A stretch of DNA of 64,000 bases from the NCBI RefSeq assembly GCF_006345805.1, contig NC_043004.1, positions 64,046,001 through 64,110,000 of the forward strand, read 5' to 3'. Within the stretch, counting starts at the first letter, position 1. Every line of letters starts with the position of its first letter. The notes beneath the pieces were generated by a model. It worked only from the letters and a program-made list of their open reading frames with translations, had not been told where the DNA came from and searched no databases. Made by a program: the position numbers and the translations under genes. The DNA is from Octopus sinensis (Eukaryota). Shown in pieces: positions 10,153-64,000 of this stretch.

Positions 10153-10564
10153 CAGGCGAGCTGGCAGAAACGTTAGCACGCCGGGCGAAATGTTTAGCGG
10201 TATTTCGTCTGCGTTACGTTGTGAGTTCAAATTCCGCCGAGGTTGACTTTGCCTTTCATCCTTTCGGGGTCGATAAATTAAGTACCAGTTACGCACTGGG
10301 GTCGATGTAATCGACTTAATACCTACGTCTGTCCTTGTTTGTCCCCTCTGTGTTTAGCCCCTTGTGGGTAGTAAAGAAATAGGTATTTCGTCTGCGTTAC
10401 GTTCTGAGTTCAAATTCCGCCGAGGTCGACTTTGCCTTTCATCCTTTCCGGTTCGATAAATTAAGTACCAGTTAAGCACTGGGATCGATGTAATCGACTT
10501 AATACCTATGTCTGTCCTTGTTTGTCCCCTCTGTGTTTAGCCCCTTCTGGGTAGTAAAGAAATA
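10153..10564 (+). mobile_element. tRNA-derived SINE family B (Meta-domain-like), duplicated body, 10-bp TSD
   Basis: Head GGCGAGCTGGCAGAAACGTTAG, B-box GAGTTCAAATTCC, central GCCTTTCATCCTTTCGGGGTCGATAAATTAAGTACCAG (resembles the Meta-SINE domain, from memory). Body occurs twice. GGTACGTAAA flanks both sides (10143-10152, 10565-10574). Confidence 0.9.
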
Positions 10565-10727
10565 GGTACGTAAAGAGGAAAAAAAAAAGAAAAATCTGTC
10601 CTTTGTAGCAATGAATGTTTAATAAATTCTCGTTCCAGATAACAAGTGTTAATGCTTTAGAATTTAAATGGTCACTTGGTGCTAGACTGTTGTGACTGAT
10701 TTGGATCTTTTAACTTTTATACCATAC

Positions 10728-13274: not shown

Positions 13275-14223
13275 CATAGACATGACAGAAGTAAATAGAC
13301 CACCCATAGAACATCGTTTTATGTTTATTTTAACTTGAAAACGTTTATGTTTTTTATTAATTGACATTCTTTTTCAGGTGCTATATGTGACTGTCTAATA
13401 CAAGTACGAATTTCAAAGAGGCCATATTGTGGGTCAATCTGAAGATGGACTTAATCAGAGTAGAATCGCAGGAAAACTTGGGATCCCGCTTTCTACAGTT
13501 AGTAGAGTGATAGAGCAATTCACCAGAGAGGAAGAAGAGTCAACATCACTTCGCCCATGTTTACCAGAGCCGTCTGACAAGACCCTTCACTTTTTTAAGA
13601 GAAGTGTAGAGGATAATCCTCGTCTCAATGCCTTTGACATAGCAAAACAATTTGATGTTAGTCCCAGAGCAGTTATCAGATATCTCCATAGACTTGGTTA
13701 CTATGGTAGAGCTGCAAGAAGGAAGCAACATCTCCGAACTACCAATATCAAGCGGTGAATAGATTGGGCCAGTGAGATAGAGAGAAACATAGATTCAGAC
13801 AAATATGTGTTCACATTGCAGAAGGATTCCTTCCAATCTTCTGCGGTGAAATGATTAAAAAAGACTCTTTATTTATGGAAGATAGGAATCCTTGTCAAAC
13901 GGCTAAAACGACCCAAGATTGGCTGGCAGAGAATGGCATTAAAAAGCTTCCATGCTTAAGCCAGTTACCAGATATTGAACATCTCTGGGGCATAATGAAC
14001 AGAACACTTCGTAAAAAGAACAAGAAAGCATTCCCATAGCCAGATCTTTTGAGATTACTGCTTGAACCCAGGCTAGAAATTCCTCAATACAATGTTCGTC
14101 AACTGATCAGTAGCTTGCCTAATAGAATCCTTGCATTGAAAATGGAAAAGGGTAAATCTACTAAACATTAAAGGGTAAATATAATGATTATAATGGTATC
14201 TATTTACTTCTGTCATTTTTGTG
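13275..14223 (+). mobile_element. Internally deleted Tc1-like transposon with both TIRs and TA TSD
   Basis: Ends CATAGACATGACAGAAGTAAATAGACC and GGTATCTATTTACTTCTGTCATTTTTGTG, each flanked by TA. HTH region [22 protein letters not shown]...YYGRAARRK; decayed catalytic end FMEDRNPCQTAK...SQLPDIEHLWGIM. Confidence 0.9.
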
Positions 14224-19340: not shown

Positions 19341-20222
19341 AAGAGGGGTGTTCATTAAAGATTTCTCCTGACCCACTTCTGGTTGTTGCAGGAAATATAA
19401 CTTGTACAGGTATAATTATACATGCATGTATATGTCACATTGTGAATTACAGCTTTCCACTAGTATTCGTTTGTCTTCTACGGCTGCTGAAGTGTCTTCA
19501 GGTGTGATAATGGAGGTAGTTGAATTCAGATCAGTGAACAGGTTCTTATACTTGAAAGGTCGTACAACAAAAGAGACTTTCGATGAGATGAAAGTTTGTT
19601 GTCACGATGCACCATCGTACGACATCGCCAGTTTAAATATGGTCAGACTTCGGTGGAAACTGCTCCTATTCCTGGACGACTACATTCAGCCATTGATGAC
19701 GATAACATGTATAAAGTGGAAGTTGCCATTTTGGAGGATCGCCGCATTACTATTTATCAACTAGCCCAAGAACTGAAGATAAGTGTAGGTTCCGTGCAAA
19801 AAACCAAAAAAATTATTCACGACCATTTGCACATACAGAAGTTGTCTGCACGATGGACTCCCCGGATGTTCAGTCATTTGCTCCTAGGTTCTTTTGGCAA
19901 TATGCGAAGAAAACGCGGACTCTTTCAACAGACTTATCACACCGGATGAAACAGGAGTCCATCGCTATGATCCTGAGACTAAAGTACCGTCAAAGCAATG
20001 GAAGCATGATAAATCACCACCTACAAAGCAGGATCGTGTCCAACCCCTAGCGAGCAAAGTGAGGCTCACTGTCTTTTGGGACCAGCGTGAGGTAGTGATG
20101 ATAAATTTTCTGGCAAAGGGCACCACAATTAACGCAGCGTATTATGCTACCCTGCTGCAGAAATTGCAGAACACCATCAAAGCAGAGAGGCGTGGCAGAG
20201 AGGTAAAGCCGTGGCCCCTGAC
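19341..20222 (+). mobile_element. Mariner transposon, 5' TIR and 3'-truncated transposase pseudogene (copy 1)
   Basis: TIR-like AGAGGGGTGTTCATTAAAG; EFRSVNRFLYLKG, EDRRITIYQLAQELKISVGSV, KLSARWTPRM (WVPR motif), LITPDETGVHRYDPETK, KVRLTVFWD, GTTINAAYY; frameshifted. Confidence 0.93.
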
Positions 20223-20229
20223 GCATACA

Positions 20230-22246
20230 CATGTATGTATGTATGCATGTATGTATGTATGTATGTATGTATGTATGTATGTATGTATGTTGTATGTATG
20301 TATGTATGTATGTATGTATGTATGTTTGTATGTATGTATGTATGTATGTATGTATGTATGTAGTATGTAAGTATGTTATGTATGTATGTATGTATGTATG
20401 TATGTATGTATGTATGTTATGTAGTATGTATGTATGTGTGTATGATGTAGTATGTTTTGTATGTATGTTGGTATGTGATGTATGTATGTATGTATGTATG
20501 TATGTTGGTATGTATGTTTATGTATGTATGTATGTATGTATGATGTATGTATATATTATGTAGTATGTATGTATTATGTATGTATGTATGTATGTATGTA
20601 TGTATGTATGTATGTATGTATTGTATGTATGTTGTATGTTTGTATGTATTTTGATGTATGTATGTATGTTATGTATGTATGTATGTATGTATGTATGTAG
20701 TATGTTTTGTATGTATGTATGATGTATGTATGTATGTATGTATGTATGTATGTTTGTATGTATGTATGATGTATGTATGTATGTATGTTTGTATGTATGA
20801 TTATGTATGTATGTATGTATGTATGTGTGTATGTATGTATGTATGTGTGTATGTATGTATGTATGTGTGTATGTATGTATGTATGTGTGTATGTATGTGT
20901 ATGTATGTATGATGTATGTTGTATGTATGTATGTATGTATGTATGTGTGTATGTATGTATGTATGTGTGTATGTATGTATGTGTGGTAGTAGGTTGTATG
21001 TATGTGGTATGTATGTATGTATGTATGTTGTATGTATGTGGTATGTATGTATGTATGTTGTATGTATGTATGTATGTAGTATGTATGTATGTTGTAGTGT
21101 ATGTATGTATGTTTGTATGTATGTATGTATGTATGTATGTTTGTATGTATGTATGTATGTTTGTATGTATGTATGTATGTATGTAGTTAGTATGTATGTA
21201 TGTATGTATGTTGTATGTATGTTGTATGTATGTATGTATGTATGTAGTATGTATGTTGTATGTATGTATGTATGGTGTATGTATGTATGTATGTATGTAT
21301 GTGATGTATGTATGTATGTATGTTGTAGTATTGTATGTATGTTTGTAGTATGTATTAGTATGTATGTATGTTGTTTGTAGTATGTAGTATGTATGTATGT
21401 ATGTATGTATGTATGTATGTAGTATGTAGGTATGGGTAAGTATGTATGTATGTTTGTAGTATTTGTATGTATGTATGTATGTATGTATGTATGTTTGTAT
21501 GTATGTATGTATGTTTGTATGTATGTATGTATGTATGTATGTATGTATGTATGTATGTAGGTATGTATGTATGTATGTATGTATGTATGTGTATGTATGA
21601 TGTGTTGTTGTATGTATGTATGTATGTATGTATGTATGTATGTTTGTATGTATGTATGTATGTATGTATGTATGTATGTATGTTTGTATGTATGATGTAT
21701 GTATGTATGTATGTATGTATGTATGTATGTTGTATGTTTGTATGTATGTATGTATGTATGTATGTAGTATGTATGTATGTATGTATGTGGGTATGATGTA
21801 TGTATGTATGTATGTATGTATGTATGTATGTTATGTATGTATGATGTTTGTATGTATGTATGTATGGTATGTATGTATGTATGTATGTATGTATGTATGT
21901 ATGTATGTATGTTTGTATGTATGTATGTATGTATGTATGTATGTATGTTTGTATGTATGTATGTATGTATGTATGTATGTATGTATGGTATATGTATGTA
22001 TGTATGTATGTTGTATGTATGTATGTATGTATGTATGTTGTATGTGTAGTTGTATGTATGTATGTTGTATGTATGTATGTTTGTATGTATGTATGTATGT
22101 ATGTGTGTATGTATGTTTGTATGTATGTATGTATGTATGTATGTATGTATGTATGTATGTATGTATGTATGTGTATATGTTGTATGTATGTATGTATGTA
22201 TGTATGTATGTTATGTATGTATGTATGTCGTATGTATGTATGTATG

Positions 22247-22277
<31 letters not shown>

Positions 22278-23070
22278 TGTTTTATGTATGTATGTATGTT
22301 TGTATGTATGTATTATGATGTATGTATGTGGTATGTATGTATGTTTGTATGTATGTATGATGTATGTATGTATGTATGTATGTATGTATGTTTGTATGTA
22401 GTATGTATGTATGTATGTATGTTTGTATGTATGTATGTATGTGATGTATGTATGTATGTATGTATGTGTATATGTTTGTATGTATGTATGTATGTATGTA
22501 TGTATGTTTGTATTATGTATGTATGTATGTATGTATGTATGTATGTTGTATGTTATGTATGTATGTAGTTATGTATGTATGTAGTATGTATGTATGTATG
22601 TTGGTATGTATGTATGTATGTTTGTATGTATGTATGTATGTATGTATGTATGTATGTATGTTTGTTATGTATGTATGTATGTATGTATGTATGTATGTAT
22701 GTATGTATGTATGTATGTTGTATGTTGTATGTATGTATGTATGTATGTATGTATGTATGTATGTATGTATGTATGTATGTATGTATGTATGTTTGTATGT
22801 ATGTATGTATGCATGTATGTATGTATGTTTGTATGTATGTATGTATGTATGTATGTATGTTTGTATGTATGTATGTATGTATGTATGTATGTATGTATGT
22901 ATGTATGTATGTGTGTATGTGTGTATGTATGTATGTATGTTTGTATGTATGTATGTATGTATGTATGTATGTATGTTTGTATGTTTGTATGTATGTATGT
23001 ATGTATGTTTGTATGTATGTATGTATGTATGTATGTATGTATGTATGTATGTGTGTATGTATGTATGTAT
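20230..23070. repeat. ~2.8 kb imperfect (TATG)n array, copy 1
   Basis: Direct reading; source of the MYVC-repeat ORFs. Confidence 0.97.
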
Positions 23071-23235
23071 TAGATCATTCCATAAACAATGCGGTTTTTT
23101 TAAATTGCATGAACTCAAAGTCGGAGGGGAACTGGATAAACTACTTGCATCAACTTGCTATCAAAGCAGGTATTCATTTTAACTTGTACTTATTCTTAGT
23201 ATAAGTTTTGAAGCGTGCTGTTCGATTTTAACAGA
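23068..23235 (+). mobile_element. Probable mariner 5' terminus fragment, repeated at 27101-27270
   Basis: Starts TATTAGATCATTCCATAAACAATGCGGTTTT, resembling a mariner TIR and the reverse complement of the TIR at 558-585. Confidence 0.55.
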
Positions 23236-23240
23236 CATAC

Positions 23241-23273
<33 letters not shown>

Positions 23274-23309
23274 TTAGATATATATATATATTATACAACA
23301 TACACACAC

Positions 23310-23350
<41 letters not shown>

Positions 23351-23395
23351 CTCACCAATTATTACATATATATATACATACACATATATATACAT

Positions 23396-24281
23396 AAGAG
23401 GGGTGTTCATTAAAGATTTCTCCTGACCCACTTCTGGTTGTTGCAGGAAATATAACTTGTACAGGTTATAAATACATGCATGTATATGTCACATTGTGAA
23501 TTACAGCTTTCCACTAGTATTCGTTTGTCTTCTACGGCTGCTGAAGTCGTCTTCAGGTGTGATAATGGAGGTAGTTGAATTCAGATCAGTGAAACAGGTT
23601 CTTATACTTGAAAGGTTCGTACAACAAAAGAGACTTTCGATGAGATGAAAGTTTGTTGTCACGATGCACCATCGTACGACTCGCCAGTTTAAATATGGTT
23701 CAGACTTCGGTGGAAACTGCTCCTATTCCTGGACGACTACATTCAGCCATTGATGACGATAACATGTATAAAGTGGAAGTTGCCAGTTTGGAGGATCGCC
23801 GCATTACTATTTATCACTAGCCCAAGAACTGAAGATAAGTGTAGGTTCCGTGGCAAAAAAACCAAAAAAATTATTCACGACCATTTGCACATACAGAAGT
23901 TGTCTGCACGATGGACTCCCCGGATGTTCAGTCATTTGCTCCTAGGTTCTTTGGGCATATGCGGAAAACGAAAACGCGGACTCTTCAACAGACTTATCAC
24001 ACCGGATGAAACAGGAGTCCATCGCTATGATCCTGAGACTAAAGTACCGTCAAGCAATGGAAGCATGATAAATCACCACCTACAAAGCAGGATCGTGTCC
24101 AAACCCTAGCGAGCAAAGTGAGGCTCACTGTCTTTTGGGACCAGCGTGAGGTAGTGATGATAAATTTTCTGGCAAAGGGCACCACAATTAACGCAGCGTA
24201 TTATGCTACCCTGCTGCAGAAATTGCAGAACACCATCAAAGCAGAGAGGCGTGGCAGAGAGGTAAAGCCGTGGCCCCTGAC
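23396..24281 (+). mobile_element. Mariner transposon pseudogene (copy 2 of 19341-20222)
   Basis: Near-identical to copy 1, including the truncation point; differs mainly by single-base indels. Confidence 0.93.
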
Positions 24282-24289
24282 GCATACAC

Positions 24290-24300
24290 ATGTATGTATG

Positions 24301-24332
<32 letters not shown>

Positions 24333-24386
24333 TGTATGTATGTATGTTTGTATGTATGTATGTATAGATGTATGTATGTTTGTATG

Positions 24387-24417
<31 letters not shown>

Positions 24418-26057
24418 TGTAAGTATGTAAGTATGTTATGTATGTATGTATGTATTAAGTATGTATGTATGTATGTATGTATGTATGTGTGTATGTATGT
24501 ATGTATGTTTGTATGTATGTTTGTATGTATGTATGTATGTATGTATGTATGTATGTATGTATGTTTGTATGTAGTATGTATGTATGTATGTATGTATGTA
24601 TGTATATATATATGATGTATGTATGTATGTATGTATGTATGTATGTAGTATGTATGTATGTATGTATGTATGTATGTATGTATGTATGTTTGTAGGTTTG
24701 TATTATGTATTATGTATGTATGTATGTTTGTATGTATGTATGTATGTATGTGATGTATGTATGTATGTTGTATTGATGTATGTATGTATGTATGTATGTA
24801 TGTATGTATGTATGTGGTATGTATGTATGGATGTATGTATGTCTGTATGTTTGTATGTATGTATGTATGTATGTATGTATGTATGTATGTGTGTATGATT
24901 GTATGTATGTGTGTTGTATATGTATGTATGTGTGTAGTATGTATGTAATGTATGTGTATGTATGTATGTATGTATGTAGTATGTATGTATGTATGTATGT
25001 GTATGTATGTATGTTGTATGTAGTATGTATGTGTGTATGTAGTAGTATGTGTGTATGTATGTATGTATGTTGTGTGTAGGTATGTAGTAGTATGTATGTA
25101 TGTATGTATGTATGTAGATGTATGTATGTTTTGTATGTATGTATGTATGTATGTATTATGTATGTTTGTATGTATGTATGTTGTTTGTATGTATGTATGT
25201 ATGATGGATGTTGTCTGTATGTATGTATGTTTGTAGTATGTTGTATGTTATGTATGTTGTATGTATGTATGTATGTATGTTTGTATGTATGTATGTATGG
25301 ATGTATGTATGTTGTATGTTGTATGTATGTATGTATGTTTGTATGTATGTATGTATGTAGTATGGATGTATGTATGTAATGTTTGTATTGGTGTATGTAT
25401 GTATGTATGTAGTATGTATGTATGTTATGTATGTCTGTATGTATGTATGTATGTATGTATGTATGTAGGTATGTATGTAGTAGTATGTATGTATGTATGT
25501 ATGTAGGTATGTAAGTATGTATGTATGTATGTATGTAGTATGTATGTATGTATGTATGTTTTATTGTATGCTGTATTTGTTTGTATGTATGTATGTATTG
25601 TATGTATGTATGTATGTATGTATGTATGTAGTATGTATGTATGTATGTATGTATGTATGTATGGTATGTTTTGTATGTATGTTGTATGTATGTATGTATG
25701 TATGTATGTTTGTATGAGTATGTTGTATGTATGTAGTATGTATGTTTGTAGTATGATGTATGTATGGTATGTATGTATGTATGTATGTATGTTGTTTGTA
25801 TGTTGTATGTATGTATGTTGTATGTATGTATGTATGTATGTATGTATGTATGTGTGTATGTATGTATGTATGTATGTATGTATGTATGTATGTTGTATGT
25901 ATGTATGTATGTTTGTATGTATGTATGTTGTTTGTATGTATGTATGTATGTATGTATGTATGTATGTATGTAGTATGTTTTTGTATGTATGTATGTATGT
26001 ATGTAGTGTAGTGTGTATGTATGTATGTATGTATGTATGTATGTATGTATGTATGTG

Positions 26058-26089
<32 letters not shown>

Positions 26090-26198
26090 GTATGTATGTA
26101 TGTATGTTTGTATGTATGTATGTATGTATGTATGTATGTATGTATGTATGTTGTATGTAGTATGTATGTATTGTATGTATGTGTTGTATGTATGTATG

Positions 26199-26230
<32 letters not shown>

Positions 26231-27100
26231 TGGATGTGTATATGTGTATGTGTATGTATGTATGTATGTTGTTTGTATGTATGTATGTATGTATGTATGT
26301 ATGTATTAGTATGTATGTATGTATGTATGTATGTATGTTTGTATGTATGTATGTATGTTTGTATGTATGTATGTATGTATGTATGTAGTATGTATGTATG
26401 TATGTTTGTATGTAGTATGTATGTATGTATGTATGTATGTATGTATGTATGTTGTATGTCTGTATGTATGTATGATGTATGTTTGTTGTATGTATGTATG
26501 TATGTATGTATGTATGTATGTATGTGTATATGTTTGTATGTATGTATGTATGTATGTATGTATGTTTGTATGTATGTATTGTATGTATGTTGTATGTATG
26601 TGATGTGTATGTATGTATGTATGTATGTATGTATGTATGTATGTATGTATGTATGTATGTTTGTATGATTATGTATGTTTGTATGTATGTATGTATGTAT
26701 GTATGTATGTATGTATGTTGTGTATGTATATGTATGTATGTTATGTATGTATGTATGTATGTATGTATGTATGTTTGTATGTATGATGTATGTATGTATG
26801 TTGTATGTATGTATGTATGTATGTATGTATGTATGTATGTTTGTATGTATGATGTATGCATGTATGTATGTATGTTTGTATGTATGTATGTATGTATGTA
26901 TGTATGTTTGTAGTATGTATGTATGTATGTATGTATGTATGTATGTATGTATGTAGTGTGTATGTGATGTATGTATGTATGTGTATGTATGTATTGTATG
27001 TATGTATGTATGTTTGTATGTTTGTATGTATGTATGTATGATGTTTGTATGTATGTATGTATGTATGTATGTATGTATGTATGTAGTGTATGTATGTATG
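24290..27100. repeat. ~2.8 kb imperfect (TATG)n array, copy 2
   Basis: Direct reading. Confidence 0.97.
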
Positions 27101-27274
27101 TATTAGATCATTCCATAAACAATGCGGTTTTTTAAATTGCATGAACTCAAAGTCGGAGGGGAACGGATAATAAACTACTTGCATCAACTTGCTATCAAAG
27201 CAGGTATTCATTTTAACTTGTACTTATTCTTAGTATAAGTTTTGAAGCGTGCTGTTCGATTTTAACAGACATAC

Positions 27275-39140: not shown

Positions 39141-39229
39141 TATATATATATATATATATATGTAGGTCCCGGGTTGATTCGGGGTTAACCACAGTAAATA
39201 GGTACTCAATACATAGCAGAGTAAAATTA

Positions 39230-39551
39230 ATTTATTATATAGAAGGAGCTTCTACAGGACTAGAACTGTTTCATTCAGAGAAATCTTCAGGAAGCTAGTT
39301 AACAAGAATTGTATTGGCATTATACATTTAGGCAGGTTTAACGGGTGTTGGTGGGGGACTTTTTTGGGGGTAGGCATAGCACAAAATATCATACTTCATA
39401 TTATGCCTACCCCAAAAAAGTCCCCCACCAACACCCGTTAAACCTGCCTAAATGTATAAATGCCAATACAATTCTTGTTAACTAGCTTCCTGAAGATTTC
39501 TCTTGAATGAAACAGTTCTAGTCCTGTAGAAGCTCCTTCTATATAATAAAT
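39230..39551. repeat. Foldback inverted repeat (~149-bp arms, ~23-bp spacer), PLE-terminus-like
   Basis: 39230-39378 is the near-perfect reverse complement of 39402-39551. Confidence 0.95.
39484..39534 (+). ncRNA. Minimal type I hammerhead fold (mirror copy on the minus strand at ~39247-39298)
   Basis: AGCTTC CTGAAGA TTTCTCTTGAAT GAAA CAG-TTCTAGTC-CTG TA GAAGCT. 6-bp stem I, intact core, weak stem II (TTC/GAA), 3-bp stem III. Confidence 0.72.
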
Positions 39552-40535: not shown

Positions 40536-40567
<32 letters not shown>

Positions 40568-41101
40568 GAAACGTATCCCATAAAACTCAACGAATTTGTT
40601 AAGTGTGGAGAAGAGAAGATATTAAAACTTAAGAGAATTTTAGTTGATGCATGCGATCGTTTCACACAGCGATATTAAAACATGCAAATTCATGGTTGAA
40701 TAGAAATAATTAAATCAATTTGATTAAATTAAATTCATTATATATCACTGTTCTCCTCAGCGCAACAGTTGTAGTTTATACCTAGCTGGACTCTGATTCT
40801 TTTTTATGATGCTCGTATTTCTCATAAGGATAAATATGAATATCCAAAATCATTCTCTGCCATTTCATTTATCATGTCTTCTATAATAACTTTTTGTTTA
40901 TACTTCTTGCACTGAGGAGAACAGTGATATATAATTAATTTAATTTAATCAAACTAATTTAATTATTTCTATTCAACCATGAATTTGCATGTTTTAATAA
41001 CGCTGTTTGAAATGATCGTATGCATGAATTAAGATTCTCTTAAATTTTAACATCTCTTCTCCATTTTTAACAAATTTGTTGAGTTTTGTGGGATACCTTT
41101 C
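40568..41101. repeat. Foldback inverted repeat (~195-bp diverged arms, ~140-bp spacer)
   Basis: 40568-40765 is the reverse complement of 40907-41101, with scattered substitutions. Confidence 0.93.
40908..41024 (+). ncRNA. Type I hammerhead fold with 90-nt stem II (mirror copy on the minus strand at ~40648-40764)
   Basis: TGCA CTGAGGA GAACAGTG...CGCTGTTT GAAA TGATCG TA TGCA. The 8-bp stem II base pairs fully (two G:U); the mirror copy has a perfect CGATCG stem III. Confidence 0.75.
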
Positions 41102-41248
41102 CATAAATTCACGTAACACACCATATTCTAGTATTATTTGCATATTTGCAAACTTACGCCAGTAAGCTACCAGCAGAATATGAAGAATCTATATTAGAAA
41201 TCGCTTTTTGGAGTCCTTCAAATTAAAGGACAAAATATAACTCAAACT

Positions 41249-41312: not shown

Positions 41313-41493
41313 CATTACTACCCACAAGAAGCTAAACGTAGAGGGGACAAACAAGGACAGGCAAAGGGTTTAAGCCGATTACATCGACCCAGTGCGGAAC
41401 TGGTACTTTAATTATCGACCCCGAGAGGATGAGAGGCAAAGTCGACCTCGGCGGAATTTGAACTCAGAACGTAACGACAGACGAAATACCGCC
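41310..41493 (-). mobile_element. SINE family B, 5'-truncated
   Basis: Reverse complement of the family B body: TGGTACTTTAATTATCGACCCCGAGAGGATGAGAGGCAAAGTCGACCTCGGCGGAATTTGAACTC. Confidence 0.88.
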
Positions 41494-41666
41494 ATATATG
41501 CACATACGTATACGATGGGTAGCCACATATTTTTCATCTACGAAATTCATTCAAGAGGCATTGGTCCGTCCGGAGTTATAGGAGAAGACACTTGGGACTG
41601 AACACAGAGTTATGTGGTTGCAAGGCGAGATTCCAGACATTCGCATTTGTTTATGCATATACAACA

Positions 41667-41728
<62 letters not shown>

Positions 41729-42327
41729 AACACACAAACACATGTGTGTGCGTGTGAATATATATATATATATATATATACAGATAAAGAGGAGAGATTA
41801 AAAGAGAAACAAGCATACTTACATGACTACATACATACATACATACATACATACATACATTCATACATACATTCATACATACATACATACATTCATACAT
41901 ATATACGTACGTACATGTTTAATATAATTTAATATATACATATGTACATACATACATACGTACGTACATACATACATACATACATACATACATACATACA
42001 TACATACATACATACATACATACATACATTCATACATACATACATATGCTTAGTTACACTCTTCATCGTAGAATTTAAGCTGGTCACTAACGACGTGACA
42101 ACTTCTTCGTTTGCATGAACACAGTTCTAGAGATTTGGATTTTCTCCAAGTTAAGTATGTTTTATGCATTTATTTATTTAGATATTGCATTCATGCAAAG
42201 AAGGGAAGCATTTTTCTCTGCCGTTTTTAAGACTTCTCTTAATGGCAGAGGTCTGTATGTCTTTGGTATAGCATTCCTTTCGCGAAAAGACGACGATGTG
42301 GACTGGACTTCACCTTAATTTTCTGCA

Positions 42328-42402
<75 letters not shown>

Positions 42403-42413
<11 letters not shown>

Positions 42414-42925
42414 CATTAAAAGGCTTCCAAATAAAGAAGCGAGTGCTAGATACACACACTGGTAATAATAATTTATTTTTATTACCCTATTTACTATGTT
42501 TAAATATTGCTCGATAAATTTTTACCGGCATCCTCTCTGTCGCCGGGTATGATTTGCGTCTGCGCTCTAATCTGAAAAGTTAGGGTATATAGATCGTTAG
42601 ATTTGCACGTGCTTCTAACGGTATGTACATCTCGGATTACAAAGGCTTCCTGCTGATGATTCTGGCCTTGGCAGATAAATTCTATTCATTTGCAAAAAAA
42701 AAATGATGAAACCGCGGTACAGGATTAGCTGAGTTGGTAAACGTTTTTGATTTTCATCCCTTTCATGAATGTATCCCCTTTTTGTGTAATTAGCACTCGC
42801 TTCTTTATTTGGAGGCCTTTTAATGTATTTATATATGAATAACATATAGTCTAACGACTAATTCGTCTTTTGTGCTAGACCACTGTAATAATAATTTATT
42901 TTTATTACCCTATTTACTATGTTTA
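42403..42925 (+). mobile_element. Retrozyme/PLE pseudo-LTR-like non-coding element in a (TA)n tract
   Basis: 41-bp direct repeat at 42462-42502 and 42885-42925 (423-bp period). 42403-42448 is an inverted copy of 42791-42836. Central hammerhead; (TA)n on both sides. Confidence 0.75.
42648..42724 (+). ncRNA. Type I hammerhead ribozyme fold
   Basis: TCCTG CTGATGA [48-nt stem II region] GAAA CCGCGG TA CAGGA. Perfect stem I, intact core, palindromic stem III, predicted GUA cleavage site. Confidence 0.8.
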
Positions 42926-42963
42926 TAGAAATATATATATATATATTATATATATATATACAT

Positions 42964-43002
<39 letters not shown>

Positions 43003-43079
43003 CAAATATATATATATATATAATATATATATATACAACGCGTGCGCACACCCACACACATGTGCTCACATGTATGTAG

Positions 43080-63480: not shown

Positions 63481-64000
63481 TTGGGTTGGCAACTAAGTTC
63501 CCGCCTTTTTTTTTTAATTTTGGAATTCATTGCGCTTTTAAATTTTGGAATTTATTTTTTCGAGAATTCTATTTTTGAATAATTTTGGAATATATTTTGT
63601 TTTGTTTTTTTTCTCATTAATTGTAGTTAATTTTTGTTTATTTCAGATCATTAAAATGGAAGGTAAAGTTAAGAAAATCGAGCATTTTCGACACCTTCTT
63701 TTTGCTTTCAATCACGGTTCTAAGGTCGCAAAAGCTGCTCTCGACATTTATGCTGTGTATGGAGAGGGTGCCATACTGAAAGGACCGCTTGTGATTGGTA
63801 TGCCAAGTTCAAAAATGGAAATTTTGACCTCAAAGACGCACCTCGTTCTGGCCGGCTAGTTGAGTTCGATGAAGAGCGATTAAACCAACTTTTGCACGAA
63901 AATTCCCGTCAAACGACAATGGAAATGGCAGAGAAAATGGAATGCTCCCACACTGCTGGTTTGCTTGCTCGTCACCGCTCAGCTCATGGACACAAGCAAC
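63481..64000 (+). mobile_element. Mariner transposon 5' part, runs off the window
   Basis: TA-TTGGGTTGGCAACTAAGTTC TIR; EHFRHLLFAFNHGSKVAKAALDIYAVYGEGAI, then after a frameshift WYAKFKNGNFDLKDAPRSGRLVEFDEERLNQLL. Confidence 0.93.

Follow-up and report, generated by a model that had tools for sequence, protein, structure and literature searches.

The element and its neighbourhood

The element considered here lies in a window (the whole stretch of DNA that was analysed, 64,000 nucleotides long) of microsatellite-rich DNA with about 35% GC and mariner/Tc1 relics. The DNA has the look of an animal genome, and its style of repeats suggests an octopus. The parts of the element are collected in Table 1. 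A first-pass annotation, made from the letters alone, had described one unit with an exact terminal redundancy of 41 bp and (TA)n on both sides, and both descriptions are confirmed: exact 41-bp direct repeats (42462-42502 and 42885-42925) are spaced by 423 bp, and both flanks are (TA)n. Around the exact core the redundancy extends to 42457-42502 and 42881-42925 (46 and 45 bp, with one gap), and the chance of finding it, from the composition, is about 10^-21 per site. An inverted copy at the 5' end had also been described; it is present, but it is 54 bp long rather than about 46 bp, with 51 of 54 positions (42403-42456 against 42836-42783) identical. This inverted piece abuts the direct part, the two arms meeting head to head at 42456/42457, and its outer 7 nt are common to the (TA)n tract. 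The inverted arm ends at a TATA-like word (42836), while the direct arm runs 89 nt further, to 42925. A second copy of the element is not found within the 64-kb window.

Table 1. Positions and strands of the parts of the element, its ribozyme and its flanks
Positions	Strand	Feature	Basis or remark
42327-42402	.	Left (TA)n target tract	Pattern A(AT)10 T (AT)11 AC, echoed on the right flank; possible slipped target duplication
42403-42456	-	Inverted 54-bp piece, equivalent to unit 42783-42836	Self-comparison; relatives' letters
42457-42502	+	First copy of the terminal redundancy, 46 bp	Exact core 42462-42502
42462-42884	+	One 423-bp unit, non-coding, 35% GC	Tiled by relatives' contigs
42645-42729	+	Type I hammerhead: stem I of 5 bp, bulge and 3 bp; long decayed helix II; 2-bp helix III with palindromic loop	
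42728-42781	+	Block after the predicted cut, with raised summed contig depth, also behind other upstream sequences	5' splice-like GT at 42737
42818-42889	+	Block of highest summed depth	TATA-like word 42830-42836; branch-point-like and pyrimidine-AG words ending at 42879
42837-42925	+	Tail-like 89-nt extension past the short-arm end	Holds the second redundancy copy, 42881-42925
42926-43035	.	Four unassigned bases, then the right (TA)n tract	Pattern A(AT)8 T (AT)6 AC...

The flank pattern A(AT)n T (AT)m AC occurs seven times, on both strands, among the 82 long AT tracts of the window, and two of the seven are the flanks of the element. This echo is a weak hint of a slipped target duplication at insertion.

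The first-pass annotation had seen no convincing coding capacity, which is borne out: the element has no stop-free frame of more than 80 codons, and two of its frames compared with Pfam give no match. Around it, between 36 and 50 kb, none of the 64 frames of at least 45 codons that pass the complexity filter has a Pfam match, and no open reading frame with reverse transcriptase and GIY-YIG domains is found. The locus thus lacks the adjoining Penelope-like element (PLE) frame that the annotation had named as a case against its own reading.

Two unrelated hammerhead-bearing insertions lie less than 4 kb upstream (about 39165-39551, and 40561 onward), and both have the same build as the element: the short arm is inverted and its end is joined to (TA)n, and the second arm is longer. 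The insertion at 39165-39551 is palindromic and (TA)n-flanked; its arms are 95% alike over 325 bp, each with a hammerhead core (39490 on the plus strand, 39290 on the minus strand). It carries a 65-nt extension on one side, its short arm ends at a TATA-like word as in the element, and it looks like a head-to-head PLE end. In the other insertion (40561-41108 and onward) the inverted arms are 88% alike over 205 bp with a 141-nt spacer, and the hammerhead core at 40912 has a helix II region of 90 nt with an 8-bp base. At 42908-42924 the extension of the element has 15 of 17 bases in common with that of the first neighbour (39165-39229, minus strand), a score reached in 23 of 5000 shuffles; two other pairings are not significant. 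This common word is a possible signal near the outer start site.

Farther off in the window, Tc1/mariner transposase relics (Pfam HTH and Transposase_1 matches) are found at 13399-13755, 19372-20370 (again near 23556-24417) and 63542-63856, one of them being present twice, inside a 6.9-kb (ATGT)n tract (20231-27103) and at the edge of that tract. A 183-bp unit forms a tandem dimer (95% matches) at 10199-10568, and similar words recur at about 41367-41495 and 58293, which hints at a SINE-like repeat.

The hammerhead ribozyme of this copy

The hammerhead has CTGATGA at 42653-42659 and GAAA at 42708-42711, with all 11 core bases present, so that the invariant core (CUGA-GA, GAAA, UH) and helices I and III are all found. 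Helix III carries the 8-nt palindrome ACCGCGGT (42711-42718), and the cut is predicted at 42719/42720. Stem I has 5 bp, with 3 bp more possible past the bulge. A strict hammerhead descriptor matches once in the window, against 0.02 matches per simulated 64 kb, and no match with a palindromic helix III occurs in 100 simulated sequences. Rfam gives no match in the window at gathering score, and at E up to 10 no hammerhead but four weak matches, all unrelated; the 48-nt helix II region may have defeated the Rfam models. At the base of helix II (10.1-11.1) this copy has U.U at two of four positions, where the common letters of the relatives give G.U and U-A. The earlier description of this hammerhead as the best preserved in the window thus calls for a reservation about the base of helix II with its two U.U mismatches; the core is intact.

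The best fold of the monomer (-18.7 kcal/mol) buries the ribozyme core. In the computed fold of the dimer (-48.1 kcal/mol, against 2 x -18.7) the helix III palindromes and stem I are predicted to pair between the copies. A palindromic helix III should lead to cutting in multimers and leave a monomer circle intact. The unit of this diverged copy is not better folded than its shuffles (z = -1.21, 12/100), and 60% of it is paired when it is folded as a circle.

Relatives in public sequencing runs

The search of public runs lists 24, of which 20, under four organism labels, contain part of the stretch, the best word share being 0.28. As relatives we take the contigs of four of these 24 runs that fit the element at 80% or more (79, 218, 75 and 14 contigs); none of the listed runs is labelled RNA, and for X10 and X11 an RNA origin is only a guess. 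A 19-base ribozyme pattern also occurs in metagenome contigs at six loci with 51-68% GC, which align to the element over at most 28 bases and are read as chance matches.

The pieces from different runs overlap over the entire unit (42457-42550, 42529-42632, 42571-42693 and 42623-42844), with no depth gap in 42458-42727 and no single listed piece spanning the unit. Before 42457, contigs of each of the four runs carry letters that match the unit end (9 to 30 letters shown, among the 24 of 95 loose ends listed), and one X10 contig has a joint going back 424 positions, from 42880 to 42457. In X11 a contig of 390 nt spans 42457-42562; the letters ahead of this stretch are those of the unit end, and those behind it match the unit at 42726 over 29 letters. 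Judged from the length of that contig, a deletion between 42562 and 42726 is less likely than a diverged ribozyme region. The listed pieces follow head-to-tail paths, none with two hammerheads (this locus has one), although contigs are graph products in which a repeat of at least 31 nt can yield such a path without a tandem molecule. Read as contig paths of four runs, they indicate that the family is multicopy and head-to-tail continuous with a unit of about 420 bp, the organisation that the first-pass annotation had proposed to look for by aligning copies.

The relatives' contigs have the 41 bp in unit context, which rules out duplicated host target DNA, a possibility that the annotation had held against itself. 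A classic PLE tail is dropped as well, since the short arm stops 89 nt before the long arm. The inverted piece has the relatives' letters at the positions equivalent to 42789-42790, and a mosaic or microhomology junction at 42443-42456 is rejected in favour of this simpler account. Over about 100 compared positions of the duplicated stretches four differ, and at three of the four the 5' pieces agree with the relatives.

Over 42591-42687 the window has an identical counterpart in one X1 contig, and the helix II mismatches at 42660 and 42687 are therefore probably not assembly errors. Every covering X1 contig differs from the window at 12 of the 40 variant rows listed (93 in all). By these comparisons this copy is a diverged one, or a member of a minor subfamily.

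Two further (AT)n junctions appear in the contigs, each in a single one. An X11 contig ends at 42836 and continues in (AT)n, exactly the point where, in the window, (TA)n borders the inverted piece; another contig begins near 42617, preceded by (AT)n. An alternative reading makes the locus a fragment of a hammerhead satellite array that reached a microsatellite break through repair or recombination of DNA, with no RNA step. The head-to-tail continuity of the relatives would suit such an array, and unequal crossover can spread tandem hammerhead repeats, as the available part of a 2026 preprint has it (bioRxiv 10.64898/2026.07.22.740005). A second contig with the same short-arm end beside (AT)n, two unrelated neighbours of the same inverted-arm build and the possible target duplication all argue the other way, and we regard this origin as very improbable.

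The summed contig depth, which is not taken as copy number, is several-fold higher in the blocks 42728-42781 and 42818-42889, which other upstream sequences also adjoin. The two blocks are candidate cis-signals. An intron joint between 42737 and 42879 is not among the joints listed for the contigs of the four runs. Just before 42735-42736, differing upstream sequences of other families meet the same block, including a different hammerhead with the same palindrome. The raised depth and the other upstream joins imply that longer or different elements have these blocks, as they would if an internal deletion, at this locus only, had fused the 5' start of an autonomous PLE to its 3' end and left a one-off relic, and if the contigs of the relatives were the ends of full-length PLEs. 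Against such a relic stand the overlap of the contigs across the internal unit without a depth gap and the lack of any Pfam match in the frames surrounding the locus; we consider it improbable, though less so than the satellite origin.

Signs of selection on the ribozyme of the family

Among the variant rows listed (40 of 93), 16 positions fall in the ribozyme (42648-42724). None is on the 11 core positions, which alone has P = 0.06; two occupy positions 7 and 17, which tolerate change, three lie in an internal loop and 11 in helices. Pairing is kept or restored by 10 of the 11 helix variants, and 42648 T>C breaks stem I as listed. The changes 42713 C>T and 42716 G>A together keep the palindrome, at equal depths in X1 and X10, at 383 and 398 in X4 and at 13.1 and 16 in X11. 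For 42652 G>A with 42720 C>T the depths are equal in X1 and X11 and unequal in X4 and X10. With 42660 T>G and 42704 T>A the base of helix II becomes paired. These variants are unphased, and the distal helix II was drawn with the variants already known. On this footing helices I and III appear to covary in the relatives, and helix II appears paired, unlike in this copy; the ribozyme of the family is probably under selection.

Class of the element and how this copy may have been made

The element is likely an animal non-LTR retrozyme, that is, a slightly decayed, dispersed copy of a non-autonomous PLE of about 420 bp. Its features are those of a retrozyme (a non-coding unit of a few hundred bp with one hammerhead and less than 50% GC, in a family that is multicopy in all four runs) and those of a PLE insertion (an inverted 5'-truncated copy, a partial tandem, and a (TA)n target with the two (AT)n junctions in contigs). 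The two are not rival classes if, as the 2026 preprint argues, retrozyme and PLE derivative are the same kind (Li, Clavereau and Pollet, bioRxiv 10.64898/2026.07.22.740005, available in part). The class itself is already known, and the element adds a well-resolved example. By analogy with known insertions, the inverted piece, together with arms that end differently, suggests integration by the PLE machinery, which strengthens the option of a PLE partial tandem with an inverted 5' end that the first-pass annotation had left beside its own.

Both ends lie downstream of the predicted cut, by 117 nt (42836) and 206 nt (42925). Given these positions and a copy that reads through the cut site, a linear monomer released by cleavage is excluded as the template. 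What was copied is either an uncleaved multimer or a ligated circle, since copying passed a ribozyme site that had not been cut and went on for more than one unit. The four differences in about 100 overlapping positions fit both. Between the two we lean slightly towards the multimer.

The following course of events would account for the locus. Multimeric transcripts would self-cleave through dimer hammerheads, by way of the palindromic helix III. The (TA)n tract would be cut by the reverse transcriptase/GIY-YIG endonuclease of a PLE acting in trans, and cDNA would be primed on both strands at internal sites of the RNA, whether this is an uncleaved multimer or a ligated circle. One cDNA would start at 42925 and run for 1.1 units across an intact ribozyme site, the other would start at the TATA-like word (42836) and run for 54 nt, and the two would be joined head to head at 42456/42457. 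Alternatively, twin priming on one RNA, as in the L1-style model, would fit too. As to the helper, our guess is a Neptune-like PLE; Naiads target (TA)n but are without hammerheads.

The sub-case of a circular template, in which the PLE reverse transcriptase starts internally on a ribozyme-made RNA circle of about 423 nt and makes 1.1 turns, is possible rather than probable. The positions of the two ends, which leave no room for a cleaved linear monomer, and the predicted sparing of the monomer circle by the palindromic helix III are in its favour. Retrozymes of coral, mussel and axolotl accumulate as circles (PMC7229834, in the accessible text), and internal initiation means that no RNA 3' end is needed (PMC11167929, likewise in part). 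The same partial source, on the other hand, has the one PLE studied in vitro using mainly uncleaved RNA, with ribozyme mutants still inserted. More than one turn would presumably require strand displacement, the unit is not unusually self-paired, the differences between the overlaps also fit heterogeneous tandem units or later mutation, and an uncleaved tandem transcript accounts equally well for a copy of 1.1 units.

Still more tentative is the claim that the locus is the footprint of a PLE reverse transcriptase copying such a circle from fixed internal start sites. If true, it would join two published and so far unconnected facts, the circles of retrozymes and internal initiation by the PLE reverse transcriptase. 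The family would then be a natural substrate for tests of circle-templated retrotransposition, offering a hammerhead that cuts dimers only and spares the monomer circle, together with the short common signal near the outer start site. For such tests the positions are exact: a predicted cut at 42719/42720 and candidate starts at 42836 and 42925.

Comparison with known systems

The literature is cited here from sources that were in part accessible, most subscription papers being outside the search. Within this scope no report of cephalopod retrozymes is found, and none that brings together three of the four subjects retrozyme, Penelope, internal initiation and circular template; the giant squid genome paper, in its accessible part, gives 235 hammerhead matches as a count only (PMC6962438). 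This literature leaves open by what machinery animal retrozymes are mobilised and whether their circles serve as templates.

In the available text on animal non-LTR retrozymes (Cervera and de la Pena 2020, PMC7229834), tandem type I hammerhead units give linear and circular RNA, and PLEs are proposed as helpers. The element is like them in its non-coding unit of a few hundred bp (about 350-390 bp in mussel), its GC below 50%, its single type I hammerhead, and the head-to-tail organisation and many sequence variants of its family; an axolotl family described there also has U.U at the base of helix II. It differs in being a dispersed 1.1-mer with an inverted 5' piece, in a helix II prolonged by a long hairpin, and in its 423 nt, slightly longer than the invertebrate units of about 170-400 nt given in the same source. 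Small palindromic helices III and dimer cleavage are described for metazoan hammerheads in the accessible parts of PMC4209133, PMC6155905 and PMC6765202.

PLE insertions offer the second comparison (Arkhipova 2013, PMC3846280; Craig 2021, PMC8557442; Frangieh 2024, PMC11167929; each in the part available). They often have an inverted 5'-truncated copy, a tail of 30-40 bp and a microsatellite bias (PMC8557442), a rotifer pLTR contains a TATA-like word (PMC3846280), and in a lizard PLE the protein cleaves AT-rich DNA on both strands and initiates cDNA at two sites within the RNA, mostly on uncleaved RNA (PMC11167929). The element shares with them the partial tandem, the inverted 5'-truncated copy, the extension of one arm, the TATA-like word in the repeat, the (TA)n or AT-rich target and a hammerhead with a small palindromic helix III. 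It has no open reading frame, and three observations speak against the PLE reading: no autonomous partner is found in the sequence analysed, the extension is 89 nt against the published 30-40, and the inverted piece is no mirror of the adjacent direct part, unlike in the typical Penelope junctions described in PMC3846280. The non-autonomous Chlamys PLEs, e.g. MRC1, are likewise short ORF-less PLE derivatives with pLTRs and head-to-tail insertions, but they are green algal and, as far as the accessible text of PMC8557442 goes, mostly without hammerheads.

The closest frame is that of the 2026 preprint (bioRxiv 10.64898/2026.07.22.740005), whose available part derives retrozymes from PLE pLTRs and reports cleavage of one of nine tested dimers. 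The dispersed monomer copies, the units of 51-972 bp and the proposed link with PLE pLTRs agree with what we find here. In that work the link consists of co-occurrence and pLTR homology, mainly in vertebrates, whereas here it lies in the anatomy of the insertion, the inverted arm, the two ends and the (TA)n target offering junction-level evidence for mobilisation by PLEs.
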